In this document: positions 21,805 to 44,517 of the stretch, piece after piece
Position numbering within the stretch: the first letter of the stretch is position 1
Layout: every line of letters begins with the position of its first letter
NCBI GenBank assembly: GCA_002269645.1
Contig: NIVC01000110.1
Span: forward strand, 496,001-560,000
DNA from: Macrostomum lignano
Lineage: Eukaryota
Reading direction: 5' to 3'
DNA: 64,000 nt
Made by a program: the position numbers and the translations under genes
The notes under the pieces: model-generated
Database searches by the model: none
What the model saw: the letters and a program-made list of their open reading frames with translations, nothing else
What the model was told of the DNA's origin: nothing

Positions 21805-22112
21805 AGTAGTATATAAAAAGACGCTTCTAGACCCAGAGCACTTTTTTAACGACCGTTTTAAGGGTCCAGAGGGGGGACACGGGGGGTAAATAAAAAAACA
21901 CATCTAAACACCATTAACACATCTAATCACCCATAATCACCCCTAACAATAAAAATCACTTCCCAACACTTCCAAACACTCCCCAACACCCCCCTCGCGT
22001 CCCCCCTCTTAAGACCTTACAAACGGTCATTAAAATAAGGTCTGATCTAGAAGCGTCTTTTTCTATACTACTACTCTATAACCCCTTGCCCGCGCCGCAG
22101 GCGCGAAGGGTC
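21805..22112 (+). repeat. Left terminal inverted repeat (308 bp)
   Basis: Reverse complement of 44699-45006; I see two substitutions. Confidence 0.97.
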
Positions 22113-22129
22113 TTTTTCTGTTACTAAAA

Positions 22130-22427
22130 ATGACCCGAGTTTACACCTTTTGAGACTGTTGCTAAAAATGCAGAGATAATAAAACAACATATTTTGAATG
22201 GAATAATTGATGAAGTTTATTTAAAATATGACGACAAGCATGACCTAAAGCTTTATCCATTAGAGCTAGATGAGATGTATGATTTAGAACAAGAGGGTGA
22301 GTTAATATTTCAACTTGGAGATTATTTAAATTCGGATGATTGGGAGGTTAGATCAACAGATTCCGAATCAACAAATAGTTCATATGAAACCAGTGATTCA
22401 GAGAATGAAAGTGAAATTTTTATGTGA
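22130..22427 (+). CDS. Small acidic Polinton protein (probable frameshift near the start)
   Basis: Open frame 22134-22427 with a D/E/S-rich C-terminus; AAAAATG at 22130 is one base out of frame. Confidence 0.4.
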
Positions 22428-22443
22428 AAAAAATATTTAAAAA

Positions 22444-22668
22444 ATGAACTATTATTCTATAACAGAAACGACATTTATTGTGAAAAATATATATAAAAAA
22501 ATGAAGGTAAACTATTCCTACATCGGAAATGTGCCGATTAATGAACTTAATGAAAATTTAAGTTTGATAACACTTGAACAAATGTCAATAATAATATTAG
22601 TAACAATTATAGTAATAATATTGTTTTTGTTTGTTATAAAAAATTTACTACCATGTTGTCTTAAGTAA
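22444..22668 (+). CDS. 74-aa membrane protein
   Basis: AAAAATG start; C-terminal TM MSIIILVTIIVIILFLFVI. Confidence 0.6.
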   Translation: MNYYSITETTFIVKNIYKKMKVNYSYIGNVPINELNENLSLITLEQMSIIILVTIIVIILFLFVIKNLLPCCLK

Positions 22669-22678
22669 CTGTTTGAAC

Positions 22679-24288
22679 TTAGTTCGCAGACATTATCTGG
22701 TTCTCATAAAAAGAACCCAATATTTCTTCACCATCCTTATCAGCAATTATATAGGTTGTAGGGTTTGTATTTAAAACTTTACTGATGGTAAATTTCTCAC
22801 TTATTTTCCAATATCCTTTTCTTCCCTTTTCAAACTTATCTTTCCATTTATAGATATAAACAGAATCACCAACCTTAAAACCTTTAGTTTTCTTTTTTTC
22901 AAAATCTCCAAAAGTAACCCTAACGTTTTCAGGATTGTTATAAGCTTGTTGAGGAGTCATCTTTATCGCCGAATGATATGAATTATTATAATCTTTCACC
23001 ACGTCTGGTAATATTTTTACCCATTTTTGGTTACCATTAAGACTAAACTGAAACCACAATTTCTTACCTAAAGTTCTATTAAATCTTTCTATTAATGCGT
23101 TTTTACTCTCTCCATAAATAGAATAAATTTTATTAATATACTCCCCATTCGCGTCCTTTTTCCTTTCTTGTCCTTTTTCAAAATGATATAATTTATACAT
23201 ATGAGGATTGTAAAATTCTTTTCCTTCGTCAACACACAACCTTTCACTTTTTTCTCCAAGACTTCTAAAAGCAGCAGCAACACCCTCTCCCTTTTTGGAT
23301 TTTAAAGGAACAGCCCACGCGTATCGAGTAAAACCATCTAATATGGTTAAGATATATTTATATCCTCTTTCGTTCGGCATCGACATTAAATCAGCATACC
23401 AAATTTCATTCTTTTTGAAGTTCATGATTTTTCTATAAAATTTAGGTTTTCGATATTCTTTATGAAGAATCTTTGCCTCATCAGAACTTAACCCGCCGCC
23501 ACTTAACAACAAACACTCAACACAATTATTTCCATGTTGATTATAATTAATTCCTAAACCAAATTTAACTTTAGACTGCAAGATCTTTTTAACCATCCAC
23601 CTAGTTAATTTTTGACCTACCGATAATCCCTGCAAGTTATCTAATCCTTGAATCATTTTTTGATCGGCTTCATGTTTTAATCTTAATGCTTCCTCGGGTG
23701 TGTTCTTATCAGCATCTCTGTATGCTAAGTCATGATAGTATGCTAACCAATCAATTCCATTTATGGAATTGAATCGGCTTTTGGGGTGTCATCAGGATTT
23801 AATCTCAAATCTAAGCGAGTGCCGGGTAGTTTACCCTCAATCTTTCGAAAGAGGCTGGAGCACACCTTAAGCGGCGATAATTACCGCCCATCTCCGTCTG
23901 CTCTCTGAACCTTCTCCTTATATTTAAAATACTTAGGAGCTTGGCTGCGCATTGCCACCGTGTCTTCAAGCTTTTTACCTTTGGGAAGAGGAGTTACCTC
24001 TGTTCCTTCAAAAGATTTCTCAATTGAAGTGGTACTTGAAGCAGTATGACGGGTTTCACGCAATTTGGAGATGTCGCCACAAATAGTGACTAGCAAGGAC
24101 ATTGCCTTCCTCACTCAGGCCACGGGTTAACCTGTGAAGTTCATTGATGGTAAATGTAGTTCCCCAGTATACCTTCCAGTAGTAAAGATTGGTGGTAAGC
24201 TTGTTAATCCTTTTTGAACATCTAACAATCCTCCTTCAAACACTATTTGATCGTTCCGAAGGAACGCGAACTTCGTTCGGTTGCTCAT
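22679..24288 (-). CDS. int: Parvovirus-type phospholipase A2 (PLA2X) fused to a retroviral-like rve integrase; exon 1 24288-24130, exon 2 23826-22679, 1-nt deletion near 23763
   Basis: Spliced PLA2 reads GELHLPSMNFTG|PGTRLDLRL..IP[fs]INGIDWLAYYHDLAY..HEAD and runs without a stop into the integrase DDE core (WYADL, CVDEGKEF, IERFNRTL). Confidence 0.88.
23827..24129 (-). ncRNA. Group I intron, IC1-like, 303 nt, no internal endonuclease ORF
   Basis: P1 CAGGU/GCCUG with U.G at the 5' splice site; P3 CAUCUCC/GGAGAUG; P4 UGCGUG/UGCGCA; P5abc with A-rich bulge and GAAA loop; P7 G(A)GAGCA/UGCUCC; P8 GGCGGU/AUCGCC; P9 with GAAA loop. Removal restores G-P-G-T. Confidence 0.9.
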
Positions 24289-24838
24289 TTTTAATAGCCT
24301 TAAAAATACATGAAAGCACCAATTGTTTTGCAAACTCTTCAATGGTTGGTTGTTTAACTTTTTTATAGTTATTATCTACGCTAGTTAAGTATCTTTTATT
24401 TGTCCAATGTTCAGACTTTTTCATCTGATCTTCATCTTTGTAACTAAACGAAGAAGCGGGAATGAAATGATCAATATCTAACTTTCCAGTATAATCTTTT
24501 GATACATAATAATTTCTTGTGAAATTTAACCAATCAAAAAAGAATTCTTTTGTGCAACCAAGATATGAGATATAGTCCTTGTCATTAAAATTTTTCAACG
24601 CCCAATTTATTCTATTTCTAATTAAAACAATATGTTTGTAATTATCATCAGTGTGATACTTATTTTTTCTATATTCATTCCATTTATCTTTATTGTTTTT
24701 TATCCAAATAGCAGATGAGGTATTATGACAAGATCGACAATCATTTCTAAATTTTTTTGAATCATTTCTCCAAAAATAAAATTCTTTCGTCATCGGTTTT
24801 TCTTGTTTACACTTAGTACAAATCTTATTAGTTTCCAT
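24236..24838 (-). CDS. Free-standing HNH endonuclease with N-terminal CxxC..CxxC zinc finger (giant-virus-like type)
   Basis: CTKC...CRSC, YLGCTKE, DIDHFIP...HWTNKRYL...DNNYK. Confidence 0.75.
   Translation of the reverse strand: METNKICTKCKQEKPMTKEFYFWRNDSKKFRNDCRSCHNTSSAIWIKNNKDKWNEYRKNKYHTDDNYKHIVLIRNRINWALKNFNDKDYISYLGCTKEFFFDWLNFTRNYYVSKDYTGKLDIDHFIPASSFSYKDEDQMKKSEHWTNKRYLTSVDNNYKKVKQPTIEEFAKQLVLSCIFKAIKNEQPNEVRVPSERSNSV
24252..24279. repeat. Double-hairpin element
   Basis: CGTTCC-GAA-GGAACG CGAAC-TTC-GTTCG. Confidence 0.85.
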
Positions 24839-24861
24839 TTTATAAAAAATAAATTTAACAA

Positions 24862-25530
24862 TTAATTAAACACCAGTATGTCCAGCAGCTTTCGCGCAGC
24901 TAAAACAAGTTTTCTAGGAGTTTTAAATCCTTCTCCAACAGCCGGTTTGTTATTTATAGAATTAACAATCCTTTTATACAAGCTGGTATTTTTAACAGCT
25001 CCTCCTAACTCATCATAAAAAATTCTAGCACTTATTAATTCATCCCTAGTATATAAATCAGGGTTAAATTTTACCCTAGGGTTCATAACAATATTATATG
25101 CTCCACCCAATTCTCTATATAGTTCATTTCGATTTTTATCAACTCCACCAATTCGATAATTATTATTACCTAAATCTGTCGCAGCAATACTAGCTGGTAC
25201 TCTTGGATATTGTTCCCGATCGCCCCGCTCTGCACGTCTAATCTCTGCAATTCTCAATTGCGCTTGATCAACATCATAAGCAGGCGGCTCATCCAAAATT
25301 TCATCCTCTTTTGGCTCCGTATTTTTAGCAATTTTTTCCAGAAGATCTTTATCTGTTTTTTCTAGTTCACTTATTTTCCCAGTAATAGGATTAACAAAAG
25401 GAGCAGCAAATCTTTCACCCGCTAATTGTATTCCTAACTTTCTTTTTTGTAAATTTCTAACAAAATCAGAATATCTTTGCTTCTCTTTATAAATCGCTAA
25501 CTCTCCATCAACGTCCATAAATTGACTCAT
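24862..25530 (-). CDS. Polinton protein of unknown function, 222 aa
   Basis: AAAAATG start, FAAPFVNPITGKI segment, GEG|F motif near the C-terminus. Confidence 0.7.
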   Translation of the reverse strand: MSQFMDVDGELAIYKEKQRYSDFVRNLQKRKLGIQLAGERFAAPFVNPITGKISELEKTDKDLLEKIAKNTEPKEDEILDEPPAYDVDQAQLRIAEIRRAERGDREQYPRVPASIAATDLGNNNYRIGGVDKNRNELYRELGGAYNIVMNPRVKFNPDLYTRDELISARIFYDELGGAVKNTSLYKRIVNSINNKPAVGEGFKTPRKLVLAARKLLDILVFN

Positions 25531-25564
25531 TTTTTAACATAAAAAACTTTTTTAACTTAAAAAA

Positions 25565-27034
25565 ATGGCTGAAACAAAAACTATGTGGAGTGATAAATTT
25601 CATTTCAAAAAGCACCGACAGTATATTAATGAGGTCAGAGCAAAGATTTAAATTATACCCTACCAACAAGTGATAATTCAAATAACTTTACTACTGGAAC
25701 GGTAACTTTTGACATCGGCGCAACCAACACTATATTGGATATGAAAAATGCGTTTTTCCGCGTTAGATGGTTGTATACTAGAAATGATGGAACTGCTCTT
25801 GCAGCCGGAGATATCGCAGATCGATCCGGAATAATAATTGAAAATGATTGGTTTTATAAATGTTTTTCCCAAGCTCAACTAACTGTTAATGGTGCTGAGG
25901 TTGAGACATCATCAAACCCCGCAGAGATTAATGGAGTTTTGAAACATTTAAATTATACTTATTTATCAAAACAAGTTGGTGATAATGTTGGGTGGATGCC
26001 GGATAAAGGTAACGGTCAAGCAGTAGTTTTCCCTAATGTACAAAACGCAGCCGGTGCAGATACTGCAGCGCTAATTGTTTACCTTAATACAAACATAGTT
26101 CCAGTTGTAACCACTATGACTAATACAAAAGATATTAATACTGGTTTTATAGATCGTCAGAATAAATTCCCAGTCGCGGTTTTAACCACAGCAACAGCAT
26201 ATGAGCAGGACTTTTCAATCTTTCCACTATTTGGGTTTTTCTCACCAAATCGGGTATGGAAAGGATTAAAATTTGGGATACAGTTGCAAATATCTGGTGG
26301 ATATCAGCCTAGGATACTTTATGGAACCTCAATTTCAACCGATATAGCAGTTCGTATAGATTCAATTCAATTAGTCGTACCAACTATTGAGGTAACAGCC
26401 CCACTTTTAAAACACATCGATAATCAGTTAACGCATGATCAGGAAATATTTTATTTGAATCGTAGACACTTTATGCGAACCATTAATAACAATCAGGATT
26501 CATTCCAGTGGCAAATACTGACATCAAAACGTCGGGTGAGATATATTTTTGTTTGGTTTAAATAACAAATAGAAGGAGTAAAAGAGCAAATGGGGATTTA
26601 TATTGGCTTCAATCGGTGCCATAGCAGAACAAGCAGCCACCGCAACAGACAATGCGGCTGCAGCTATTAACGAGTTTAATGTTCAGAATATCCGCCTGCA
26701 GGTTGATGATCAATATTATCCGGTTAAAGATCCTCTTAATCTAAATATTGCAAATAATAATGTTAATGATTTTATAAAATATTATCAAGATTATGCTAAA
26801 AATGAAGCGTATGCCGTCCCTCAGTACACACCCACAGAGTTTCTAAACATTCATCCAGTGGTTGTTTATGATCTAACGGCACAGAAAGAAAACGTAGCCA
26901 ATATTGGACTTAATTATATGTTAGAGATTAATAAAACCGGTAATCAGGCACTTGACGCCCACGTATTGTTTCTAGAGGAATATATGTCAATTGCTAAAGC
27001 TGATGGCACGATTGTTCGGGACGCACCATTGTAA
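25565..27034 (+). CDS. Major capsid protein (double jelly roll), interrupted in the assembly near 25643 and 26563-26600
   Basis: RVRYIFVWF, NIRLQVDDQYYP, HPVVVYDLTAQKE match Polinton MCP motifs; position next to ATPase and penton. Confidence 0.85.
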
Positions 27035-27118
27035 AATGAGTGCAGTGCAAAGCACGTCGCACCACTTTAGTGTCGCAGGTCTCCGACCGTCGCGCCTATT
27101 TAAATTATTTCTTTAAAA

Positions 27119-27919
27119 ATGGTAAAGGCAAAACACGATAAGATATTTCCAAATGATCCTTTTCTTTGTTTAGTAATCGGAGGATCAGGTAAAGGAAAAA
27201 CACACTTTGTTTACGATTTATTAACAACAGATGGAATGTTAGACTATAATAATTTAATAATTTATACTAATAAACCTAGAATAAAATATTATGAATTTCT
27301 TAAACATGGATTAAAAAACAAATTAAAAAAAGATGTCTTGTTTAGAATGTTAAGAGCATATGAGCAATATGAGGATGATGACGAACCGCGATTTAATCTA
27401 GCAGACATTGAGGATTTATGTAAAACAATGGCACAACAGCCAGAAAACATCACCGATCGCCCCGAAGGGTCGCGGACTTCGTCCGATCGCGCCCCAACTG
27501 TTAGAGTATCAACCCGATTAGCCTATGATCAAATTCCAAAACATGATAAAACACTAATTATTTTTGATGATTGTATTAATGACGGTGATCAAGAATTACA
27601 AAAGGAAATTTTTGTTAGTGGTAGAGGAGATGGAATTGGAGCTTTTTATCTTACTCAATCCTTTAGAGAATTAGAATCGATTATAAAAAAGAATGCTAGC
27701 TGTTGTGTAATGTTTGATTTAGATAACTATGATCTACAAAATATTCACGCTAGATTTAATCCCGGATTGGATGCAAAACCACTTAAAAGTATGTGTAAAA
27801 AAATTTGGGATGATAGCCAACACAAACATATTTATATCAATCCGAGGTTAGAAAGGAAACATAGAATTTTAACAAATTTGATAAAAGAAGATAATGAGGA
27901 AGAAGAGGATCGTGCATAG
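27119..27919 (+). CDS. A32/FtsK-type packaging ATPase
   Basis: Walker A GGSGKGKT, Walker B LIIFDD, downstream SGRG..YLTQS. Confidence 0.92.
   Translation: MVKAKHDKIFPNDPFLCLVIGGSGKGKTHFVYDLLTTDGMLDYNNLIIYTNKPRIKYYEFLKHGLKNKLKKDVLFRMLRAYEQYEDDDEPRFNLADIEDLCKTMAQQPENITDRPEGSRTSSDRAPTVRVSTRLAYDQIPKHDKTLIIFDDCINDGDQELQKEIFVSGRGDGIGAFYLTQSFRELESIIKKNASCCVMFDLDNYDLQNIHARFNPGLDAKPLKSMCKKIWDDSQHKHIYINPRLERKHRILTNLIKEDNEEEEDRA
27458..27485. repeat. Double-hairpin element inside the ATPase ORF
   Basis: CGCCCC-GAA-GGGTCG CGGAC-TTC-GTCCG (one mismatch); CCGATCGC occurs at both ends. Confidence 0.8.
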
Positions 27920-27936
27920 CACGCGGACTTCGTCCG
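27911..27936. repeat. Double-hairpin element over the ATPase stop codon
   Basis: CGTGC-ATA-GCACG CGGAC-TTC-GTCCG. Confidence 0.85.
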
Positions 27937-27956
27937 GTTAATTTCCCACTATAAAA

Positions 27957-28742
27957 ATGACTACAAATTTAAATACTATAAAACAATTGGTAGATCGAAC
28001 TAATTCAAAATTTAGTACAACATTACAGTTTATAATGACAACCAGCGAGCAACGGATTCAATTGCGCGATCCATTACAACTTGATCAAAGCCTAAGTTAT
28101 CAAATAGGTTTAATTCTATTTTCGGTTTTCAACATGCCTCAATTAATTAATGCAACAAATAATCAATTTAGATATTCTAAAGATTCCGGAGCCAATTGGA
28201 CAACATTTAGCGTTAACCCAGGAGCGTATAGCTATACTGATTTGAATGCTTATATAGAAGGAGAATTAACAACTAATGGTGATTGGGTAGCAGGAGCAAT
28301 TGTTATAGGTGTTGATTTACCGTCTGGCAGATTCACACTATCACTAGGATCCGGATATCAGGTTGATTTCACAATTGCAAATTCACTCAGAACCATACTT
28401 GGATTTAATTCCCGAATAGTTACCACATCAAGCACCGGTGATACCGTGGGAAACATTGAGGGCGGAGTCAATACAATTAATATAACAACCGACATATCAA
28501 ACGGCGGTTATATAACAGATAATAATGGAGTTTTGGTTCAACGTGGAATTATTTATTCAATCCCATTTCTTGCTGTTCCAATTGGAGAGAAAATGATTGT
28601 TGCACCCCAAACCCCAATATATTATCCTTTAAATCAATATAGCGTTCAATCAATTTATATTAGGATTGTAGATGAAAGCGATAGATTAATAAGTTTTGGT
28701 GGGCAGTCAATAACAATAATTTTACGTATAAAACAGGTTTAA
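27957..28742 (+). CDS. Minor capsid protein (penton, single jelly roll)
   Basis: IQLRDPLQLD, PGAYSYTDLN, SLRTILGF, INITTDI, SIYIRIVDESDRLISFGGQSITIILRIK. Confidence 0.85.
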   Translation: MTTNLNTIKQLVDRTNSKFSTTLQFIMTTSEQRIQLRDPLQLDQSLSYQIGLILFSVFNMPQLINATNNQFRYSKDSGANWTTFSVNPGAYSYTDLNAYIEGELTTNGDWVAGAIVIGVDLPSGRFTLSLGSGYQVDFTIANSLRTILGFNSRIVTTSSTGDTVGNIEGGVNTINITTDISNGGYITDNNGVLVQRGIIYSIPFLAVPIGEKMIVAPQTPIYYPLNQYSVQSIYIRIVDESDRLISFGGQSITIILRIKQV

Positions 28743-28744
28743 TA

Positions 28745-28823
28745 GAACCGAAGGTTCGCGGACTTTGTCCGTTTCCTATAGTAAAAATGGGTAATCGAAC
28801 AACATGTTCGCGTGCAAAGCACG
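28745..28823. repeat. Two double-hairpin elements (28745-28771 and 28796-28823; copies at +5334)
   Basis: GAACC-GAA-GGTTC G CGGAC-TTT-GTCCG and CGAAC-AACAT-GTTCG CGTGC-AAA-GCACG. Confidence 0.8.
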
Positions 28824-28996
28824 ATAATAATAATAATTTAATAAAAAAACAATCAGAAAAAGTTAAAAAAGCTGAAGATAATTACGAACTAGAACTAGCA
28901 AAATTAAGGCAGTTACAAGCTGATAAAATAAGAAAGGAATTGTTAAAACCCACACCTACGAAACTAACTAAAACCAAGAGTTTTTCAGGAACATAA
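28787..28996 (+). CDS. 69-aa basic protein (copy 1)
   Basis: AAAAATG start, MGNRTT N-terminus, Lys-rich. Confidence 0.6.
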   Translation: MGNRTTCSRAKHDNNNNLIKKQSEKVKKAEDNYELELAKLRQLQADKIRKELLKPTPTKLTKTKSFSGT

Positions 28997-28997
28997 A

Positions 28998-29464
28998 ATG
29001 ACCATGACGTGGGATGATTTTAAACAAAGATATGGAACGGACACAACAAGCAATATCGAATTAACAAATTGGGCGAGGCAGTTAAAAATAAAACCATTCA
29101 GATGTGTTATGCGAGATGAGATCAAAGACTTACCACAATATGGATCTTTCATTGTTAATATTGAAACAACAAAAGAAAATGGTGTTCATTGGTCGGCAGT
29201 TTATTCCAAACCTAAACTTGTTTATTTTTTTGATTCATACGCGCTTCCTCCGTTACAGGAAATAAAAGACAAATTTAATCATACTAAAAATCGTTTATGT
29301 GGAGATCATCACGAACAGTTTCAAACATTTGATAAAAGTTATTGCGGGCAGGCTGCGTTATATTTTTTATATAAAATCGACGAAGTCCGCGAACCAAAGG
29401 TTCGATCAATAACTCGAAGGAAACCCCCGAAGACTTTAGGGCGATTTTAGACTCTATAAAATAG
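28998..29464 (+). CDS. Adenain-like cysteine protease (copy 1, 1-nt deletion at ~29379)
   Basis: HWSAVY, FFDSYA, QFQ, YCGQ give the His-Asp-Gln-Cys set. Confidence 0.88.
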
Positions 29465-29474
29465 ACAGTAAAAA

Positions 29475-31522
29475 ATGTTATTTTCTGGAACACCCTCATG
29501 GAACGGAACAACAAGTAGTGGCGGTGGTGGCACATCTGGTGGAATAAGTGTTACATTCGGAGATAATCGATATATTAATGAAGATGAAGGTTATAAAAAA
29601 AGTGAAGTTGATACTAAACTAAATTTAAAAAGAAACGTTGCAGATTCCTATACTAAAACTCAAATAGATGATTCACTAAATCTGAAACGGAACGTAGCGA
29701 TTCCTATACCAAAACCGAAGTTGATAATTCATTAAATTTAAAACGCAATACAGCCGATTCTTATGCCAAAACCGAAGTTGATAATTCATTAAATTTGAAA
29801 CGGAACGTAGCCGATTCTTATACCAAAACAGAGGTTGATAATTCATTAAATTTGAAACGGAACGTAGCCGATTCTTATACCAAAACCGAAGTTGATAATG
29901 GATTAAATTTAAAAAGAGATGTAACTGATTCTTATTCTCGAACTGATTCTGATTCACGTTATGTTCAAACCACCGCAACCGGAAACCTAGATATGAGCAA
30001 CAACCGAATTATAAATGTTTCAATTACAACTAGTGATTCAGTGGTTGATAAGAACTATGTCGATAATCAAGTTGCCACTCGTAGTGGAAATATTAATATG
30101 AATAATTTTAAATTAACAAATTTATTATTTGGAACAGATAACGCAGACTCGATAACTCTAGGCCAAGTAAATGAGCGAGCTAATGCAACCGACGCCGATA
30201 TTTTTACAACGCCGCTTACATCAAATACTTCAAATCCTGATGTTGTTCTTACAGCATCTGAAAATGGCAACACAGCTTTTCGAGTTGGAGATGGAAGCCT
30301 TGCGACACAATGGTCACCAAATACCGGAACCACAACCAATATGGAAATTCAATTTGAATTTTTAGGTTATAATAGAAGAATATTTGAATTAAGAATTACA
30401 GGCAGTGAAACAATTGAGATACCCTCGGGGTGGTCGGTTCGCGCAAAAAATGTTGCTACCGATTCATGGACGACATTAACTACGTCGGGATCACCAGTTC
30501 AAGCAACATCATTTGCTCTATCTAATTTAACGACTAATTTTTGGAAATATTATAGCGTATTCTTCCCAACTGGTGGTACCGGTACACAACCTATCGAGGT
30601 TCGTCAAATACAATTATTTGAACACCGTGTTGAAATTCAAGATCTTAATTGGCCAACTCAAATACTTTCTGCAGTTCCGCGAGCGTACGTAGATCAGCTA
30701 GCTACTCCAACATCAAATGGTAGAATGTCTGGAAGCGATAAAAATAAATTGGATGGAATACATGCTATTGATGCAGCCTTGTTCGAACCAGTAATTTGTA
30801 ATTGGTCTGGATATCAAAATCCAACAACCGCCGGAGATATATATCCAGTCGGTTCTTTAATTGGTGACGCTTCTTATATCGATTATCAAAATGGAGCTAG
30901 AATTACTCGTGAAACCGCAGGTGTAAGTGGGGCTTTACAATTTAATTTCACACATTTTCAAAATATATCTGCGTCTTTCTTTTTCCGAGTTGCTAATTCT
31001 ACAGGAGATGGTGCAGATGCGGTTTGGTTTTATGCATATTGTCACGAACGTCCAACATCGGAATTTGGAACTGGATTATCAACCGACGCCGGGCTGATAG
31101 TGTTTGCTAGTGAGTGGACTGATAGGTTTGGAGTTGTTTGGAGTAATAAAAAATCAGACGGATCTACGGTTCGTAACGATGTTAGTAGTGATGCGGATCA
31201 AACTGTAGCCTATGCTAATATTGATAACGGTGATTGGCATTTATTTGAAGTTAATATTTTAAATCAAAGGGTTTGGTACCGATTACAGTCATACAATGTT
31301 GCTGGTGATTCTTTTACCCTCATTGGACAGAACGTTTTCACATATGATAGTGGAACTTGGGGAACTTTAGATAAATCTGGAACCCTTATGGGTTTTGGTG
31401 CTCGAACTGGTGGAGCGGATGCTGCACATTTTATTCGTGGTGCAGTTGTATGTGGTAGTACGTCGTTTGGTTATGTTTTTCCCTCTACTGCTTATTTGGA
31501 AAAACCTCCTACTCAAATATAA
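29475..31522 (+). CDS. Fibre-like protein (copy 1, 1-nt deletion at ~29697)
   Basis: Same as 34810-36858 apart from the frameshift. Confidence 0.8.
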
Positions 31523-31553
31523 AATATTTATATATAAAATATTTATATATAAA

Positions 31554-31880
31554 ATGGCTTTTAGTAGAACTCCATCGATGCGGCAAAATAATGTTATTAT
31601 TCCTATTCCTAAACAAGAATCAAATATAAAAACATTCAAATCTCATACCAAATTTTTATTTAGTACTGTAAATGTTCAGGATAATAAGAAGCTTCAAGAA
31701 TTAATTAAATTATTAAAAAATCATATTATACTTCAAGAGTTTTGGAAAATAGGATTTAAATGGGAGAAAAAAGAAAGAATAACTCCAATACAATACCTAT
31801 TAAGCTCCGGGCAAATCCCCAAAGAGCGTGGGGAATTCATTTTGGTGCTATTAAAAATAGACGAGAATGTCGGTATCTGA
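31554..31880 (+). CDS. 108-aa protein of unknown function (copy 1)
   Basis: AAAATG start at 31554 within ORF 31395..31880. Confidence 0.55.
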   Translation: MAFSRTPSMRQNNVIIPIPKQESNIKTFKSHTKFLFSTVNVQDNKKLQELIKLLKNHIILQEFWKIGFKWEKKERITPIQYLLSSGQIPKERGEFILVLLKIDENVGI

Positions 31881-32523
31881 AGCAGATAAATGGGAACGCG
31901 ACCGGTTCAACCAACGTAAAGGTCAGATGTTGAGTAATGTTGATCGAATAAATTATGATTATGATTTATATGCTAAAAAAGTAAGAAGAGTTTCAAACCA
32001 TATAAGAAATATGGACTTTTTCAATATTGGATTTGGAAGCTTATCAATGTTATGTGTAATCGTTTTAGGTATTTTACAATCTATTCCAACTCTTAATTTA
32101 TCTCAATTATTTTTAGGTATTTCAATTGGCTCAATATCAGGTTTTGAATTGATCAGGAACTTATCAATACTTTTAGCAATTAAATTATATCTTAAAAAAA
32201 GAAAGGAAAAATATAAATCTTTAAGAGATGTTGCAAAACAATATAAAAATCAATTATATTTATATGTGCAAAAAATATTGGATGACGGAGAGATAACGAT
32301 TCATGAATTATCAACCGCGGTTGAATTATATGAAAAATATTTAAAAGATAGAAATAGAATTTTAGATGTTGAAACTTTTACCGATATGGAATTAAAAGAG
32401 TTGAGACTCGATAAACCCAAAGCTCCACCGATAGAAACATTAGGCATTTACGAACCTGAAACTATTGCTACTGGGGCACAAAGCCCGCGATCAGGAAGTG
32501 CTGTAGAACTTCAGGTTGTTTAG
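31867..32523 (+). CDS. 218-aa protein with two predicted TM segments (copy 1)
   Basis: Hydrophobic FFNIGFGSLSMLCVIVLGIL and LFLGISIGSISGFELIRNLSILLAI, then KILDDGEITIHE. Confidence 0.7.
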   Translation: MSVSEADKWERDRFNQRKGQMLSNVDRINYDYDLYAKKVRRVSNHIRNMDFFNIGFGSLSMLCVIVLGILQSIPTLNLSQLFLGISIGSISGFELIRNLSILLAIKLYLKKRKEKYKSLRDVAKQYKNQLYLYVQKILDDGEITIHELSTAVELYEKYLKDRNRILDVETFTDMELKELRLDKPKAPPIETLGIYEPETIATGAQSPRSGSAVELQVV

Positions 32524-33003
32524 TTTTTCTAATGCATATGTTATATATTCTTCCCAAAGTGGTAACTCTCTTCTGATCCTAGGTTTAAATTTTTTATCAA
32601 TACATAAAAATTCCAATGACTTTTTCAATAACATTTCGTTAGGTATGTTACCAATCCTTATAAACTTTGTATTCTCTCGCATAAGAAAATTGAAATAATA
32701 TCCAACTAAAATTAAAATCCTTTCGGAGTCTTTCGAACTTAATCCCTTTCCTTTATTTAAATGGAAAAAGTTATTATATAAATAAACATTATTTCCGGGA
32801 ATTAAAATTGGATCAGAAATGTCTCTTGTAAGATTTCTTAAAATTGTGTTTTTAAAATAGTAATATGAGTTTTCAATCTTTTTTGTTTTTTCAAATTGAT
32901 ATATTTTAGAACATGAATAACACATATGATATATATCTCCGTTTGCTGTTTGCCCTCTGTGCATAGTCACGTTACATTTATTACAAACATAAATGTCTTT
33001 CAT
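32491..33003 (-). CDS. 170-aa protein with N-terminal CxxC..CxxC zinc ribbon (copy 1)
   Basis: CNKC...CYSC. Confidence 0.65.
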   Translation of the reverse strand: MKDIYVCNKCNVTMHRGQTANGDIYHMCYSCSKIYQFEKTKKIENSYYYFKNTILRNLTRDISDPILIPGNNVYLYNNFFHLNKGKGLSSKDSERILILVGYYFNFLMRENTKFIRIGNIPNEMLLKKSLEFLCIDKKFKPRIRRELPLWEEYITYALEKLNNLKFYSTS

Positions 33004-33029
33004 TTTTTTGTTATTTTTTTAGATTAAAA

Positions 33030-33362
33030 ATGGAGAGCTGGTTCAAAACCGATTCTAATGTGATTAATTATCTCACACCCAATATGTTGGAGAATAAAGA
33101 ATATAATATTATATGTTTGAGACAGGTTAAATTTATTGGGCTTCAATCAATATTTTTACAATTAGATGGGCAAAAAATTTTATGTCTAAGCGGAGATGAT
33201 GTTAAAAATTTTCCTGTTTTAGTTATTAATAAACCTAAAGCGTTTGTTATGAAATACTGCAACGAGGGTGGATTGCAATTTAAACTAAAACAAACAAATA
33301 ATAAAAAGAGTGATAGGACTGTAAAATTGGCGGCTGTTTGGGAGGATGACGACGAAGACTAA
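33030..33362 (+). CDS. 110-aa protein of unknown function (copy 1)
   Basis: AAAAATG start; intact in both copies. Confidence 0.6.
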   Translation: MESWFKTDSNVINYLTPNMLENKEYNIICLRQVKFIGLQSIFLQLDGQKILCLSGDDVKNFPVLVINKPKAFVMKYCNEGGLQFKLKQTNNKKSDRTVKLAAVWEDDDED

Positions 33363-33377
33363 ATTTTTTATAAGAAA

Positions 33378-33737
33378 ATGGATACGATAAAAATCCTTAT
33401 CACTAAAGAGCGTGAACTTAATGATATTAATAAAAAAATAAATATAATTATATCTCAGAAATATCATGAGTATGGGGACGATATGTTTCCCATCCGATAT
33501 GAGATAGATAAAAGAAAACGTTTTTTAAGACAAGATATTGTTTATGCTGAAATAGTAATTGAAATTGAAATAGATAGATTGGTTAGAAAAATAAAAAAAC
33601 TTAGGAAAAAAATAAAGGATTGTTTAAGTTACCCTGCCGACTGTGAGGATAATTGGTGCTCAATAATATATGAAATTGAAGTTAATGATTTGCTCAAACA
33701 ATTACATGCTTTAGTTTTTTACAGACCCGATAAGTAA
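33378..33737 (+). CDS. 119-aa coiled-coil-like protein (copy 1)
   Basis: AAAATG start; intact in both copies. Confidence 0.6.
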   Translation: MDTIKILITKERELNDINKKINIIISQKYHEYGDDMFPIRYEIDKRKRFLRQDIVYAEIVIEIEIDRLVRKIKKLRKKIKDCLSYPADCEDNWCSIIYEIEVNDLLKQLHALVFYRPDK

Positions 33738-34076
33738 TTTAATTCCCGAATAGTTACCACATCAAGCACCGGTGATACCGTGGGAAACATTGAGGGCGGA
33801 GTCAATACAATTAATATAACAACCGACATATCAAACGGCGGTTATATAACAGATAATAATGGAGTTTTGGTTCAACGTGGAATTATTTATTCAATCCCAT
33901 TTCTTGCTGTTCCAATTGGAGAGAAAATGATTGTTGCACCCCAAACCCCAATATATTATCCTTTAAATCAATATAGCGTTCAATCAATTTATATTAGGAT
34001 TGTAGATGAAAGCGATAGATTAATAAGTTTTGGTGGGCAGTCAATAACAATAATTTTACGTATAAAACAGGTTTAA
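33737..34076 (+). pseudogene. 3' fragment of the penton gene created by the duplication
   Basis: Identical to 28403-28742; no N-terminus. Confidence 0.9.
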
Positions 34077-34120
34077 TAGAACCGAAGGTTCGCGGACTTT
34101 GTCCGTTTCCTATAGTAAAA

Positions 34121-34330
34121 ATGGGTAATCGAACAACATGTTCGCGTGCAAAGCACGATAATAATAATAATTTAATAAAAAAACAATCAGAAAAAGTTAA
34201 AAAAGCTGAAGATAATTACGAACTAGAACTAGCAAAATTAAGGCAGTTACAAGCTGATAAAATAAGAAAGGAATTGTTAAAACCCACACCTACGAAACTA
34301 ACTAAAACCAAGAGTTTTTCAGGAACATAA
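34121..34330 (+). CDS. 69-aa basic protein (copy 2)
   Basis: Identical to 28787-28996. Confidence 0.6.
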   Translation: MGNRTTCSRAKHDNNNNLIKKQSEKVKKAEDNYELELAKLRQLQADKIRKELLKPTPTKLTKTKSFSGT

Positions 34331-34331
34331 A

Positions 34332-34799
34332 ATGACCATGACGTGGGATGATTTTAAACAAAGATATGGAACGGACACAACAAGCAATATCGAATTAACA
34401 AATTGGGCGAGGCAGTTAAAAATAAAACCATTCAGATGTGTTATGCGAGATGAGATCAAAGACTTACCACAATATGGATCTTTCATTGTTAATATTGAAA
34501 CAACAAAAGAAAATGGTGTTCATTGGTCGGCAGTTTATTCCAAACCTAAACTTGTTTATTTTTTTGATTCATACGCGCTTCCTCCGTTACAGGAAATAAA
34601 AGACAAATTTAATCATACTAAAAATCGTTTATGTGGAGATCATCACGAACAGTTTCAAACATTTGATAAAAGTTATTGCGGGCAGGCTGCGTTATATTTT
34701 TTATATAAAATCGGACGAAGTCCGCGAACCAAAGGTTCGATCAATAACTCGAAGGAAACCCCCGAAGACTTTAGGGCGATTTTAGACTCTATAAAATAG
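34332..34799 (+). CDS. Adenain-like cysteine protease (copy 2, intact, 155 aa)
   Basis: His-Asp-Gln-Cys motifs as in copy 1. Confidence 0.9.
   Translation: MTMTWDDFKQRYGTDTTSNIELTNWARQLKIKPFRCVMRDEIKDLPQYGSFIVNIETTKENGVHWSAVYSKPKLVYFFDSYALPPLQEIKDKFNHTKNRLCGDHHEQFQTFDKSYCGQAALYFLYKIGRSPRTKGSINNSKETPEDFRAILDSIK
34712..34739. repeat. Double-hairpin element inside the protease ORF (copy 1 at 29378-29404)
   Basis: CGGAC-GAA-GTCCG CGAACC-AAA-GGTTCG, with ATC on both sides. Confidence 0.85.
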
Positions 34800-34809
34800 A
34801 CAGTAAAAA

Positions 34810-36858
34810 ATGTTATTTTCTGGAACACCCTCATGGAACGGAACAACAAGTAGTGGCGGTGGTGGCACATCTGGTGGAATAAGTGTTACCTTCGGAGATA
34901 ATCGATATATTAATGAAGATGAAGGTTATAAAAAAAGTGAAGTTGATACTAAACTAAATTTAAAAAGAAACGTTGCAGATTCCTATACTAAAACTCAAAT
35001 AGATGATTCACTAAATCTGAAACGGAACGTAGTCGATTCCTATACCAAAACCGAAGTTGATAATTCATTAAATTTAAAACGCAATACAGCCGATTCTTAT
35101 GCCAAAACCGAAGTTGATAATTCATTAAATTTGAAACGGAACGTAGCCGATTCTTATACCAAAACAGAGGTTGATAATTCATTAAATTTGAAACGGAACG
35201 TAGCCGATTCTTATACCAAAACCGAAGTTGATAATGGATTAAATTTAAAAAGAGATGTAACTGATTCTTATTCTCGAACTGATTCTGATTCACGTTATGT
35301 TCAAACCACCGCAACCGGAAACCTAGATATGAGCAACAACCGAATTATAAATGTTTCAATTACAACTAGTGATTCAGTGGTTGATAAGAACTATGTCGAT
35401 AATCAAGTTGCCACTCGTAGTGGAAATATTAATATGAATAATTTTAAATTAACAAATTTATTATTTGGAACAGATAACGCAGACTCGATAACTCTAGGCC
35501 AAGTAAATGAGCGAGCTAATGCAACCGACGCCGATATTTTTACAACGCCGCTTACATCAAATACTTCAAATCCTGATGTTGTTCTTACAGCATCTGAAAA
35601 TGGCAACACAGCTTTTCGAGTTGGAGATGGAAGCCTTGCGACACAATGGTCACCAAATACCGGAACCACAACCAATATGGAAATTCAATTTGAATTTTTA
35701 GGTTATAATAGAAGAATATTTGAATTAAGAATTACAGGCAGTGAAACAATTGAGATACCCTCGGGGTGGTCGGTTCGCGCAAAAAATGTTGCTACCGATT
35801 CATGGACGACATTAACTACGTCGGGATCACCAGTTCAAGCAACATCATTTGCTCTATCTAATTTAACGACTAATTTTTGGAAATATTATAGCGTATTCTT
35901 CCCAACTGGTGGTACCGGTACACAACCTATCGAGGTTCGTCAAATACAATTATTTGAACACCGTGTTGAAATTCAAGATCTTAATTGGCCAACTCAAATA
36001 CTTTCTGCAGTTCCGCGAGCGTACGTAGATCAGCTAGCTACTCCAACATCAAATGGTAGAATGTCTGGAAGCGATAAAAATAAATTGGATGGAATACATG
36101 CTATTGATGCAGCCTTGTTCGAACCAGTAATTTGTAATTGGTCTGGATATCAAAATCCAACAACCGCCGGAGATATATATCCAGTCGGTTCTTTAATTGG
36201 TGACGCTTCTTATATCGATTATCAAAATGGAGCTAGAATTACTCGTGAAACCGCAGGTGTAAGTGGGGCTTTACAATTTAATTTCACACATTTTCAAAAT
36301 ATATCTGCGTCTTTCTTTTTCCGAGTTGCTAATTCTACAGGAGATGGTGCAGATGCGGTTTGGTTTTATGCATATTGTCACGAACGTCCAACATCGGAAT
36401 TTGGAACTGGATTATCAACCGACGCCGGGCTGATAGTGTTTGCTAGTGAGTGGACTGATAGGTTTGGAGTTGTTTGGAGTAATAAAAAATCAGACGGATC
36501 TACGGTTCGTAACGATGTTAGTAGTGATGCGGATCAAACTGTAGCCTATGCTAATATTGATAACGGTGATTGGCATTTATTTGAAGTTAATATTTTAAAT
36601 CAAAGGGTTTGGTACCGATTACAGTCATACAATGTTGCTGGTGATTCTTTTACCCTCATTGGACAGAACGTTTTCACATATGATAGTGGAACTTGGGGAA
36701 CTTTAGATAAATCTGGAACCCTTATGGGTTTTGGTGCTCGAACTGGTGGAGCGGATGCTGCACATTTTATTCGTGGTGCAGTTGTATGTGGTAGTACGTC
36801 GTTTGGTTATGTTTTTCCCTCTACTGCTTATTTGGAAAAACCTCCTACTCAAATATAA
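34810..36858 (+). CDS. Fibre/adhesin-like protein, 682 aa: 19-aa shaft repeats, F5/8-type-C-like domain, C-terminal L-type (ConA-like) lectin domain (copy 2, intact)
   Basis: (KRNVADSYTKTEVDNSLNL)n, LDMSNNRIINV, KNYVD, RMSGSDKNKLDGI; AFRVGDGSLATQWS; LIGDASY..FQNISASFFFRV..GADAVWF. Confidence 0.8.
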   Translation: MLFSGTPSWNGTTSSGGGGTSGGISVTFGDNRYINEDEGYKKSEVDTKLNLKRNVADSYTKTQIDDSLNLKRNVVDSYTKTEVDNSLNLKRNTADSYAKTEVDNSLNLKRNVADSYTKTEVDNSLNLKRNVADSYTKTEVDNGLNLKRDVTDSYSRTDSDSRYVQTTATGNLDMSNNRIINVSITTSDSVVDKNYVDNQVATRSGNINMNNFKLTNLLFGTDNADSITLGQVNERANATDADIFTTPLTSNTSNPDVVLTASENGNTAFRVGDGSLATQWSPNTGTTTNMEIQFEFLGYNRRIFELRITGSETIEIPSGWSVRAKNVATDSWTTLTTSGSPVQATSFALSNLTTNFWKYYSVFFPTGGTGTQPIEVRQIQLFEHRVEIQDLNWPTQILSAVPRAYVDQLATPTSNGRMSGSDKNKLDGIHAIDAALFEPVICNWSGYQNPTTAGDIYPVGSLIGDASYIDYQNGARITRETAGVSGALQFNFTHFQNISASFFFRVANSTGDGADAVWFYAYCHERPTSEFGTGLSTDAGLIVFASEWTDRFGVVWSNKKSDGSTVRNDVSSDADQTVAYANIDNGDWHLFEVNILNQRVWYRLQSYNVAGDSFTLIGQNVFTYDSGTWGTLDKSGTLMGFGARTGGADAAHFIRGAVVCGSTSFGYVFPSTAYLEKPPTQI

Positions 36859-36889
36859 AATATTTATATATAAAATATTTATATATAAA

Positions 36890-37215
36890 ATGGCTTTTAG
36901 TAGAACTCCATCGATGCGGCAAAATAATGTTATTATTCCTATTCCTAAACAAGAATCAAATATAAAAACATTCAAATCTCATACCAAATTTTTATTTAGT
37001 ACTGTAAATGTTCAGGATAATAAGAAGCTTCAAGAATTAATTAAATTATTAAAAAATCATATTATACTTCAAGAGTTTTGGAAAATAGGATTTAAATGGG
37101 AGAAAAAAGAAAGAATAACTCCAATACAATACCTATTAAGCTCCGGGCAAATCCCAAAGAGCGTGGGGAATTCATTTTGGTGCTATTAAAAATAGACGAG
37201 AATGTCGGTATCTGA
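36890..37215 (+). CDS. 108-aa protein (copy 2, 1-nt deletion at ~37153)
   Basis: ATCCCAAAG versus ATCCCCAAAG in copy 1. Confidence 0.5.
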
Positions 37216-37858
37216 AGCAGATAAATGGGAACGCGACCGGTTCAACCAACGTAAAGGTCAGATGTTGAGTAATGTTGATCGAATAAATTATGATTATGAT
37301 TTATATGCTAAAAAAGTAAGAAGAGTTTCAAACCATATAAGAAATATGGACTTTTTCAATATTGGATTTGGAAGCTTATCAATGTTATGTGTAATCGTTT
37401 TAGGTATTTTACAATCTATTCCAACTCTTAATTTATCTCAATTATTTTTAGGTATTTCAATTGGCTCAATATCAGGTTTTGAATTGATCAGGAACTTATC
37501 AATACTTTTAGCAATTAAATTATATCTTAAAAAAAGAAAGGAAAAATATAAATCTTTAAGAGATGTTGCAAAACAATATAAAAATCAATTATATTTATAT
37601 GTGCAAAAAATATTGGATGACGGAGAGATAACGATTCATGAATTATCAACCGCGGTTGAATTATATGAAAAATATTTAAAAGATAGAAATAGAATTTTAG
37701 ATGTTGAAACTTTTACCGATATGGAATTAAAAGAGTTGAGACTCGATAAACCCAAAGCTCCACCGATAGAAACATTAGGCATTTACGAACCTGAAACTAT
37801 TGCTACTGGGGCACAAAGCCCGCGATCAGGAAGTGCTGTAGAACTTCAGGTTGTTTAG
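37202..37858 (+). CDS. 218-aa two-TM protein (copy 2)
   Basis: Identical to copy 1. Confidence 0.7.
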   Translation: MSVSEADKWERDRFNQRKGQMLSNVDRINYDYDLYAKKVRRVSNHIRNMDFFNIGFGSLSMLCVIVLGILQSIPTLNLSQLFLGISIGSISGFELIRNLSILLAIKLYLKKRKEKYKSLRDVAKQYKNQLYLYVQKILDDGEITIHELSTAVELYEKYLKDRNRILDVETFTDMELKELRLDKPKAPPIETLGIYEPETIATGAQSPRSGSAVELQVV

Positions 37859-38337
37859 TTTTTCTAATGCATATGTTATATATTCTTCCCAAAGTGGTAA
37901 CTCTCTTCTGATCCTAGGTTTAAATTTTTTATCAATACATAAAAATTCCAATGACTTTTTCAATAACATTTCGTTAGGTATGTTACCATCCTTATAAACT
38001 TTGTATTCTCTCGCATAAGAAAATTGAAATAATATCCAACTAAAATTAAAATCCTTTCGGAGTCTTTCGAACTTAATCCCTTTCCTTTATTTAAATGGAA
38101 AAAGTTATTATATAAATAAACATTATTTCCGGGAATTAAAATTGGATCAGAAATGTCTCTTGTAAGATTTCTTAAAATTGTGTTTTTAAAATAGTAATAT
38201 GAGTTTTCAATCTTTTTTGTTTTTTCAAATTGATATATTTTAGAACATGAATAACACATATGATATATATCTCCGTTTGCTGTTTGCCCTCTGTGCATAG
38301 TCACGTTACATTTATTACAAACATAAATGTCTTTCAT
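37826..38337 (-). CDS. Zinc-ribbon protein (copy 2, 1-nt deletion at ~37987)
   Basis: TACCATCC versus TACCAATCC in copy 1. Confidence 0.6.
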
Positions 38338-38363
38338 TTTTTTGTTATTTTTTTAGATTAAAA

Positions 38364-38696
38364 ATGGAGAGCTGGTTCAAAACCGATTCTAATGTGATTA
38401 ATTATCTCACACCCAATATGTTGGAGAATAAAGAATATAATATTATATGTTTGAGACAGGTTAAATTTATTGGGCTTCAATCAATATTTTTACAATTAGA
38501 TGGGCAAAAAATTTTATGTCTAAGCGGAGATGATGTTAAAAATTTTCCTGTTTTAGTTATTAATAAACCTAAAGCGTTTGTTATGAAATACTGCAACGAG
38601 GGTGGATTGCAATTTAAACTAAAACAAACAAATAATAAAAAGAGTGATAGGACTGTAAAATTGGCGGCTGTTTGGGAGGATGACGACGAAGACTAA
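38364..38696 (+). CDS. 110-aa protein (copy 2)
   Basis: Identical to copy 1. Confidence 0.6.
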   Translation: MESWFKTDSNVINYLTPNMLENKEYNIICLRQVKFIGLQSIFLQLDGQKILCLSGDDVKNFPVLVINKPKAFVMKYCNEGGLQFKLKQTNNKKSDRTVKLAAVWEDDDED

Positions 38697-38711
38697 ATTT
38701 TTTATAAGAAA

Positions 38712-39071
38712 ATGGATACGATAAAAATCCTTATCACTAAAGAGCGTGAACTTAATGATATTAATAAAAAAATAAATATAATTATATCTCAGAAATATCA
38801 TGAGTATGGGGACGATATGTTTCCCATCCGATATGAGATAGATAAAAGAAAACGTTTTTTAAGACAAGATATTGTTTATGCTGAAATAGTAATTGAAATT
38901 GAAATAGATAGATTGGTTAGAAAAATAAAAAAACTTAGGAAAAAAATAAAGGATTGTTTAAGTTACCCTGCCGACTGTGAGGATAATTGGTGCTCAATAA
39001 TATATGAAATTGAAGTTAATGATTTGCTCAAACAATTACATGCTTTAGTTTTTTACAGACCCGATAAGTAA
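38712..39071 (+). CDS. 119-aa protein (copy 2)
   Basis: Identical to copy 1. Confidence 0.6.
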   Translation: MDTIKILITKERELNDINKKINIIISQKYHEYGDDMFPIRYEIDKRKRFLRQDIVYAEIVIEIEIDRLVRKIKKLRKKIKDCLSYPADCEDNWCSIIYEIEVNDLLKQLHALVFYRPDK

Positions 39072-43039: not shown

Positions 43040-43123
43040 TTTATAGAATAAAATTTATATAATGTTTGAATTATTGATTTTTTAATTTTGTGTTTTTGGT
43101 GTCCAGACCCTCCCCCCAGGAGC

Positions 43124-44108: not shown

Positions 44109-44118
44109 TTTTATATTG

Positions 44119-44517
44119 TTAAAATTTCTTTAATCCTTTTCCACCTTTAATAGTATTTAACATTTTATTAAAATCCTGAATATCTTTATTACTTATTGGT
44201 GCGCTTTTCGTGGGGGTTTCTGTTGGTTGTGCGGCTTGTGCCAGCTTTAAATCTTTTATTGCATTTATTTGTGAGAGGGTGTCGTTAAAATCTCTCAATT
44301 TCTTTAGTTCTTCTGCCGCTCTAGCTGCTTCAATTCCTCCTTTTACAGCATTTGTTATAGAGCCTGCTGCAGAGCCAGCTTGCCCTATAAGCCCCATATT
44401 GTCTTTAACAAAATTTGCTGCTGTTCCAACCACATCAAAAAGCCCCTCACCTCGGTATTCAACTGGGTCTCCTACCTGCAATTCATTCAGATTTTGCATA
44501 TGTGTAACGTGTGTCAT
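44119..44517 (-). CDS. 132-aa putative virion protein with an amphipathic helix after GEG|L
   Basis: GEG-LFDVVGTAANFVKDNMGLIG; ends GGKG-LKKF. Confidence 0.7.
   Translation of the reverse strand: MTHVTHMQNLNELQVGDPVEYRGEGLFDVVGTAANFVKDNMGLIGQAGSAAGSITNAVKGGIEAARAAEELKKLRDFNDTLSQINAIKDLKLAQAAQPTETPTKSAPISNKDIQDFNKMLNTIKGGKGLKKF

Follow-up and report, generated by a model that had tools for sequence, protein, structure and literature searches.

Within the 64,000-nt stretch of the Macrostomum lignano assembly that we analysed (the window; GCA_002269645.1, contig NIVC01000110.1, positions 496,001 to 560,000, forward strand), a PLA2-integrase gene is interrupted between a Gly and a Pro codon by 303 nt. 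What is this insert, and why does it sit at exactly that place? A first-pass annotation had read it as an IC1-type group I intron that lies in a protein-coding gene of a Polinton in an animal genome and gates expression of the gene. Its coordinates (23827-24129, minus strand, 303 nt) proved correct. Below we examine the rest of that reading, using relatives of the locus in the same genome and in databases.

The element and its host

The insert lies in an element spanning 21805-45006 with long inverted repeats that start with AG, a 6-bp target duplication, an rve integrase and a packaging ATPase (Table 1). These features support its identification as a Polinton integrated in an animal nuclear genome. 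The integrase scored 31.1 bits against PF00665, slightly under the cut-off of 32.6, and the PLA2 family PF08398 gave E 0.013 on L002, also under the cut-off; many full-length homologs have both PF08398 and PF00665. Capsid, protease and pPolB had no Pfam match in the window. These three labels are our assumption from known motifs and gene order; polymerase motifs are visible in the translation of the window's pPolB. The copy is damaged in exon 2 (near 23765) and in pPolB.

The host is an animal. The genome of 764 Mb gave 86 Wnt matches, and contigs C506, C952 and C67 bear Wnt exons as well as introns of the kind described here, about 24 kb apart on C952. The contaminant contig that the first-pass annotation had allowed for is thereby set aside. 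As to the phylum of the host, searching for COX1 produced just a weak, interrupted match, and an ORF of the flank had no match in the Atlas. The P5a motif of the intron had 161 exact matches in the genome and a control had none; Wnt loci are present two to four times in the assembly, so the true copy number of the intron lies below 161.

The Polinton was inserted into a LINE-type reverse transcriptase ORF (window 20577-21804), just before its FADD motif; the right flank holds no long matching frame. An ankyrin-repeat ORF lies in the host flank at 1000-1935. Inside the element, a tandem duplication of about 5.3 kb (about 28787-39071) contains protease-like, fibre-like and small genes. Its two copies differ by small indels, and it may be real or an assembly artefact.

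Table 1. Features of the Polinton and of the intron that it carries (window coordinates)
Feature	Position	Strand	Basis or remark
6-bp target duplication	21799-21804 and 45007-45012	.	flanks of the element
Left terminal inverted repeat, begins AGTAGT	21805..22112	.	308-nt repeats
Right terminal inverted repeat	44699..45006	.	308-nt repeats
Polinton interior, free of GGNCC	22113..44698	.	site listing
Exon 2: C-terminal PLA2 part fused to rve integrase; frameshift near 23765	22679..23826	-	PF00665, E 1e-7
ORF from internal in-frame ATG, encoding the integrase domain, downstream of the intron	22679-23656	-	
Group I intron of type A (303 nt, no ORF), ending in A and splitting Gly and Pro codons	23827..24129	-	covariance model, intron-less allele, covariation
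P9.0, P9 with GAAA loop, 3' end (terminal A)	23827..23857	-	P9 mapped; P9.0 by eye
P7 (23903-23899 with 23862-23858), 3' strand of P3, P8, J8/7; G-binding G-C pair retained	23858..23903	-	mapped helices, comparison of types
P4, P5 and the P5abc domain (A-rich bulge, GAAA loop)	23946..24062	-	mapped helices
P2 and P2.1 (the P2.1 loop houses the nuclease ORF in family C)	24076..24115	-	mapped helices
P1: exon 24134-24130 paired with guide 24120-24116; 5' splice site at a U.G pair	24116..24134	-	U.G kept in 9/9 rows with letters
Exon 1 of PLA2-integrase, 53 codons from the presumed ATG; overlaps the end of the upstream nuclease gene	24130..24288	-	
Free-standing endonuclease VII/HNH-like ORF	24236..24838	-	phrog_1035, E 3e-8
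Packaging ATPase	27119-27919		PF04665, above cut-off
pPolB (presumed), broken	39045-43039		polymerase motifs, gene order

The insert is a group I intron

When a 3-kb stretch was scanned with cmscan, the covariance model RF00028 matched 23836-24139 with 62.1 bits (E 1e-14; gathering cut-off, 50 bits), which bears out the first-pass annotation's expectation of a covariance-model hit. Other copies scored 65.6 bits (G-ending) and 88.9 bits (family C). A scan of the whole window with the fast filters of Rfam returned no match, so routine annotation would overlook the intron.

The boundaries were fixed by a natural intron-less copy from the same Polinton subfamily (L072), the intron-minus allele that had been sought. 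It reads in a single 432-codon frame through N-F-A-G-P-G-T, which places the insertion exactly between Gly and Pro, as annotated. The gene is likewise open where the insert is absent in P0182 and P0185. A spliceosomal intron was rejected: GT and AG positions fail to restore the frame, and most copies have no terminal AG. Other 3' splice sites at nearby G's, judged by eye, are out of frame or fall within P9.

Imposed on 12 aligned introns, the drawn structure left 94.7% of cells paired. Double-sided (compensatory) changes occurred in 26 of its 87 pairs, P2, P3, P4, P5a-c and P7 among them, whereas none of 500 shuffles reached as high and slid controls gave 2-10 pairs. Because the structure was taken from the window copy and the 12 sequences are related to one another, this comparison is biased towards it. 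All helices named in the first-pass annotation were mapped and counted except P9.0 (2 bp) and the partial P10, both of which were read by eye only. A free-energy fold found P2, P2.1, P3, P4, P5ab, P6a and P8 and missed P1 and P7; its z was -2.0, with 3 of 100 shuffles equally good.

The unusual P7 of the window intron, GAGCA/UGCUC, had been called compensatory and is as annotated; the sister introns have GACUU/AAGUC and GACUG/CAGUC. The view that P7 is under structural selection is supported. The G-binding G-C pair and the bulged A are present when mapped on Tetrahymena numbering (PMC10020454, in excerpt). Type A differs from the three other types in that its third P7 pair is flipped and its J8/7 ends in G instead of A. 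These three bases correspond to the A306-C266-G309 triple of Tetrahymena (PMC10020454, in excerpt), and the entire equivalent triple seems to have changed together. The flipped pair with its third-strand base, along with natural A- and G-ending alleles of a single core, offers ready tests of rules for the ribozyme active site.

P2.1, a full P5abc and the absence of P7.1 and P7.2 characterize IC1 introns, and the insert has this set of peripheral features. Against the consensus of the 11-nt GAAA receptor, the window copy is one base off, as annotated, and the family C intron holds the complete 11-nt version. We conclude that the insert belongs to the group I introns and has peripheral domains of the IC1 type; with the inverted repeats and the Wnt-bearing contigs, the core of the first-pass reading stands.

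The terminal base and splicing

Instead of the terminal guanosine of group I introns, the window copy has A. Among type A introns with an exact match to the 3' end, 59/79 end in A and the other 20/79 in G, C and T being absent; family C introns end in G in all 23 parsed cases. With A in 59/79 copies, the terminal A is an inherited allele and not a private lesion, and it occurs on several recombinant backgrounds. A coral mitochondrial intron without a terminal G has its exons ligated correctly at reduced efficiency (PMC6545197); by analogy, the absent G would lower the expected efficiency of splicing and not affect group I membership.

A-ending introns, that of the window included, might nevertheless be passengers without useful splicing, carried along in non-autonomous copies that would start their integrase at the internal ATG and depend on G-ending copies for PLA2. 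The internal ATG does precede the integrase domain, the window copy is broken in two genes, and the G-binding pair is unchanged although the last base is A. The PLA2 exons flanking A-ending introns had pN/pS values of 0.08 and 0.06. Of the variants in these exons, 23 also occur in G-ending copies, and the 7 private ones comprise 6 synonymous and 1 nonsynonymous; this signal of selection may therefore have been brought in by recombination. What speaks against passengers is that A is the majority state on several backgrounds and never replaced by C or T, and that the PLA2 part of exon 2 is open in 15/24 A-ending against 15/20 G-ending loci (30/44 type A loci overall); the coral intron gives a precedent for splicing without the G. 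We regard the passenger explanation, which is compatible with the mechanism proposed below, as unlikely.

Contigs from four sequencing runs that we guessed to be RNA were compared over 23450-24450; such contigs show presence only. None had a joint that skips 23827-24129, and one X12 contig spans the entire intron. Contig edges of X12 at 24130 and 23821 were considered as splice sites and rejected, nearby substitutions explaining both. We consider useful splicing highly likely for the intron lineage as a whole and, with less assurance, likely for the A-ending copies.

Introns of other kinds at the same codon

Three intron types, A, B and C, occur in this genome at the same Gly-Pro codon position of PLA2-integrase. 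Family C introns (836-895 nt) belong to a second Polinton lineage. Type B (L031, L032) has a different core and shares P2.1 and P5abc with type A, which suggests domain swapping between introns at one site. A fourth intron follows the same Gly in L167, a viral contig of environmental origin whose genes are those of a Polinton (PF21738). The first-pass annotation suggested that the ribozyme may have come from a protist or algal virus pool; outside this genome, the L167 intron is the only one that we found at this codon. RF00028 matches neither the type B (L031) nor the L167 intron; their J6/7 we take to be IE-like. Two fetched copies of type B (L031:1772-2097) are out of frame right after the 3' end.

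A short palindrome of about 30-35 nt recurs in genes of the window's Polinton (29372-29422, 34707-34757, 39737-39787) and also in the introns of L077, L045 and L175 (P5c-P5a junction; 333-nt type A variant), with variants at the start of exon 1. It looks like a tiny mobile insert.

Two database proteins, P0184 and P0222, start within the 3' end of the intron, which indicates intron-bearing alleles in other assemblies. Among 63 homologs with the PLA2 HD..Y motif, 51 are intron-less with intact Gly-Pro and 6 have Gly-Ala instead. Uninterrupted Gly-Pro Polinton lineages exist in this genome too (28 pattern matches vs 5 in a control). Further searches yielded little: single-protein scans of viral contigs found nothing; a 16-nt intron motif occurred at 52 loci, none with an intron; a 22-nt motif recovered L167 and one chance match in viral contigs, and five prokaryotic loci, none of them matched by the intron profile; a metagenome scan gave two distant nuclease loci with no intron at either.

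These comparisons bear on the proposal that PLA2-integrase retains the intron to gate its expression. Unspliced RNA does reach a stop at the first intron codon, and by analogy with the coral intron (PMC6545197) the terminal A should slow exon ligation. Yet alleles of the same subfamily (L072) and most homologs do without the intron, three different cores occupy the site, and we saw no sign of conditional control. No observation points to regulation, and downstream of the intron the integrase domain is preceded by an in-frame ATG of its own. The gate, as the first-pass annotation had it, is highly improbable.

A nuclease of the Eco47II family

Family C introns carry an ORF inside the P2.1 loop. 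In L045 its product matched PF09553, the Eco47II family, with 26.3 bits, a marginal score at a cut-off of 25.9; a free-standing form scored 20.6 bits, under the cut-off. A predicted model of the family C nuclease (pLDDT 86) had EcoO109I as its best match among 48,161 chains (rmsd 4.2, 159 aligned), with a Z of 8.4 that barely exceeds the level the structure-search tool calls common. The site of EcoO109I is, we take it, RGGNCCY. A sequence search of solved structures with the nuclease profile gave nothing significant. The model points to a PD-(D/E)xK fold with a catalytic D...E-x-K motif in an enzyme of 160-170 aa that has no added DNA-binding domain. Eco47II homologs are assigned the site GGNCC (PMC10305163, in excerpt).

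The genome holds 113 nuclease matches in two clades. Of the family C introns, 17/23 parsed keep a frame of at least 211 codons. Members of the free-standing clade are 66% identical to the intronic form; the ORF is open and sits immediately upstream of exon 1, next to a type A intron that lacks an ORF (L175). Among the matches listed (contigs up to C2506), the intron motif follows 298-417 nt downstream in 26/29 of this clade. A free-standing nuclease stands upstream of 12/59 A-ending and 0/20 G-ending type A introns. The layout of collaborative homing, a free-standing nuclease linked to an ORF-less intron, is thus found alongside the intron-embedded layout in one genome.

The slot upstream of PLA2-integrase is an exchangeable nuclease cassette: it holds an endonuclease VII-like gene in the window, an Eco47II-like gene in L175 (474-977) and a GIY-YIG gene in L167 (2804-3145). 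By position and family, the endonuclease VII-like gene could itself be the homing partner of the window intron, like F-CphI for the cyanophage psbA intron; homing endonucleases with an Endo VII motif exist (PMC6083498, in excerpt), and L167 has its GIY-YIG gene in the same slot. But intron-less L072 has a homolog of this gene beside the uninterrupted site, which a cutter of the junction would attack, and the absence of GGNCC described below would be left unexplained. We consider such a partnership very unlikely.

No linked methylase accompanies the Eco47II-like enzyme. PF00145 matched the genome 12 times, never on a contig that also has a nuclease match, and L045, L175 and the window element lack a methylase. 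In giant viruses the homologs stand beside a C5-methylase-like ORF in all 17 loci examined (20 fetched). On giant-virus-like contigs (L093-L112) the nuclease and the C5-methylase form convergent pairs, and P0029 is a fusion of both.

Seven database nuclease homologs read through into the same intron core (4/9 from one set, and P0010, P0012 and P0015), as do 12/14 further members listed of one cluster. In a tree of 52 proteins, both forms from this genome group with P0012 (97/89), within a clade (100/96) of mostly intron-tailed enzymes that lies apart from the giant-virus pairs. A derivation from the restriction-modification pairs of giant viruses was rejected: the enzymes belong to one family, yet the tree does not make them sister groups. 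The nuclease homolog P0005 and a PLA2-less integrase homolog, P0208, may lie on the same contig (longest contig 14,527 for both).

Absence of GGNCC from the element

Gly-Pro codons always spell GGNCC, and the intron divides the site between GGN and CC. The intron-less junction of L072 holds GGNCC; intron-bearing junctions do not. Of 38 GGNCC sites in the window, none falls between 21868 and 45366. The only one in the element of about 23 kb, at 21863, is in the left repeat; the right repeat differs there, and the site is probably a later change.

In the 17.4 kb of interior that remain when the terminal repeats and one copy of the duplication are left out, 8.6 sites were expected under a third-order Markov model and none was found (P 2e-4), the lowest of 256 patterns; with proteins and codon use fixed, 4.9 were expected (P 0.0075). 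Host flanks showed no depletion, at 1.3 times the Markov expectation. Among gapped patterns, CCNGG ranks second by depletion in the interior (0.45 of expectation), perhaps a trace of another nuclease.

All 44 type A loci of about 3 kb have no GGNCC, these being related sequences that overlap the same region. Six of 23 family C loci have 1-2 sites, in or outside the element. Intron-less relatives with intact Gly-Pro are not depleted, with 16 sites against 13.7 expected (L182) and 11 against 9.4 (L183); of six remoter relatives, five have 2-7 sites in their ORFs and the last, which is short, has 0 against 1.4. For L167, 0 against 1.0 under the strict null is not significant. Unrelated viral DNA had 428 sites against 558 expected (0.77), and one of 22 low-GC loci had none. 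Protein-level depletion of Gly-Pro was discarded as evidence: the pair is rare in an unrelated protein set too, and the homologs are non-independent.

A proposed mechanism for persistence of the intron

Together, a nuclease partner and the loss of GGNCC explain the insertion site better than regulatory gating. We find it reasonably probable that the nuclease cuts GGNCC, that carriers are immune through site loss and the intron, and that rivals are either destroyed or, with an intron-bearing copy as the source for repair, converted. Judging from its structure, the intron would be excised from the PLA2-integrase mRNA by two guanosine-dependent transesterifications. A partner nuclease of the Eco47II family would cut GGNCC and so let the intron persist and spread. 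The Gly-Pro of the PLA2 loop would force one GGNCC on an element from which all other sites have been lost; by splitting this last site, the intron would make the element immune without a methylase. Where several elements replicate in one cell, the nuclease would cut intron-less or unpurged rivals, and these would be lost, or repaired from the intron-bearing copy and so acquire the intron (homing). The nuclease would act from within the intron in family C, and from a free-standing gene beside the ORF-less intron in part of the window's subfamily, a collaborative layout. In the window copy the nuclease slot is taken by an endonuclease VII-like gene, so that this copy would be an immune non-carrier.

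Several facts count against this mechanism, among them the marginal profile and structure scores of the nuclease, its place in the tree away from the giant-virus enzymes, the somewhat low GGNCC counts of unrelated viral DNA, the non-significant zero of L167 and the sites in 6/23 family C loci. The host is its weak point. A four-base cutter without a methylase should damage a host whose DNA is not depleted of GGNCC; we found no host-protective mechanism and no linked methylase. As a guess, the host might escape if expression of the nuclease were confined to replicating elements. In addition, Gly-Pro is dispensable, given the 6/63 homologs with Gly-Ala.

The host-toxicity problem would be avoided by classical homing, in which a nuclease of restriction fold reads a long exon-junction site and is harmless to the host, and the purge is a relic of passage through GGNCC-restricting cells or giant viruses. 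Both nuclease layouts fit the known path from free-standing to intronic enzymes (PMC3984707, in excerpt), and giant-virus contigs carry restriction-modification pairs of the Eco47II family. Against it, the enzyme is small (160-170 aa) and has no extra DNA-binding domain; a relic purge should have eroded, but 23 kb hold a single site, which arose by a change in one of the terminal repeats; and the intron-less relatives are unpurged. Classical homing with a relic purge seems to us distinctly unlikely, and we retain the GGNCC-cutting nuclease as the preferred explanation. More tentatively, the whole may amount to restriction without modification among integrated animal viruses: a methylase-less GGNCC cutter, an element-wide purge, a self-splicing intron as the immunity device for a site that the protein forces, and a majority allele that ligates at a terminal A in nuclear mRNA.

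Comparison with known systems

The suggestion in the first-pass annotation of an undescribed system is too broad. Group I introns of protist Polinton-like viruses are published, with 53 in Paulinella, 44 in Rhodomonas and 2 in Desmodesmus (PMC12220804, in excerpt). Like the present intron they match RF00028, measure about 300-380 nt and lie in protein genes of integrated elements; unlike it they are found in protist hosts only, in Rhodomonas in a short gene before the capsid gene, and the excerpt of that paper describes no nuclease partner or site purge (PMC12220804). The Macrostomum case concerns an animal, PLA2-integrase and an Eco47II-like partner. PLA2-like genes are known in adintoviruses (PMC8502044, in excerpt), and the available portions of PMC10748475 and PMC10675990 report no such intron in Polintons. 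In the open-access literature, with subscription papers outside it, searches found neither a group I intron reported from an animal's Polintons or nuclear genes nor an Eco47II-like intron partner. Group I introns also occur in protein genes of chloroviruses. What appears new is putative homing by intron and nuclease in a provirus of an animal nucleus, where the enzyme is of restriction type and its presumed site has been lost from the whole element.

A review restricts nuclear group I introns to rRNA genes of microorganisms, with His-Cys box nucleases (PMC3679873, in excerpt), and for animals the group I introns on record are mitochondrial, in sponges, placozoans and cnidarians (PMC9240083, in excerpt). 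P2.1, P5abc, the GAAA loop and its receptor, P9 and the nuclear location are common to nuclear IC1 rRNA introns (PMC3679873, in excerpt) and the intron described here, which lies instead in a protein gene of an animal provirus. Contrary to the statement in that excerpt, group I introns thus extend to protein genes in the animal nucleus. As standard Rfam scans miss such introns, more may hide in animal genomes. The coral ND5-717 intron is likewise an animal group I intron in a protein gene and without a terminal G; it is mitochondrial, obligatory and vertically inherited (PMC6545197), whereas the present one is nuclear and optional, with a polymorphic last base.

With Eco47II-family type II restriction-modification systems, including the giant-virus pairs, the partner enzyme shares family, predicted fold, D...E-x-K motif and avoidance of the site in the carrier. 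It differs in that no methylase is present, and protection apparently comes from site loss and the intron. If the enzyme cuts GGNCC, a restriction enzyme has been recruited for homing or for competition between viruses, an intron standing in for the methylase, and the question becomes how an animal genome tolerates more than 100 matches to a frequent cutter.

Collaborative homing between a free-standing endonuclease and a group I intron devoid of an ORF is known in phages (PMC3984707 and PMC6083498, both in excerpt), and it has been raised as a possibility for insect-associated Polinton-like viruses (PMC11296320, in excerpt). The present system resembles the phage one in its free-standing nuclease next to an ORF-less intron at the presumed target, and it has the intron-embedded form too. 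It differs in being a eukaryotic virus in an animal, in the type II restriction family of the enzyme, in a presumed short site and in element-wide loss of that site. A single genome here contains the two stages of the route by which a free-standing nuclease is proposed to give rise to a mobile intron, together with intron-less targets, so that the route can be tested in a eukaryote.
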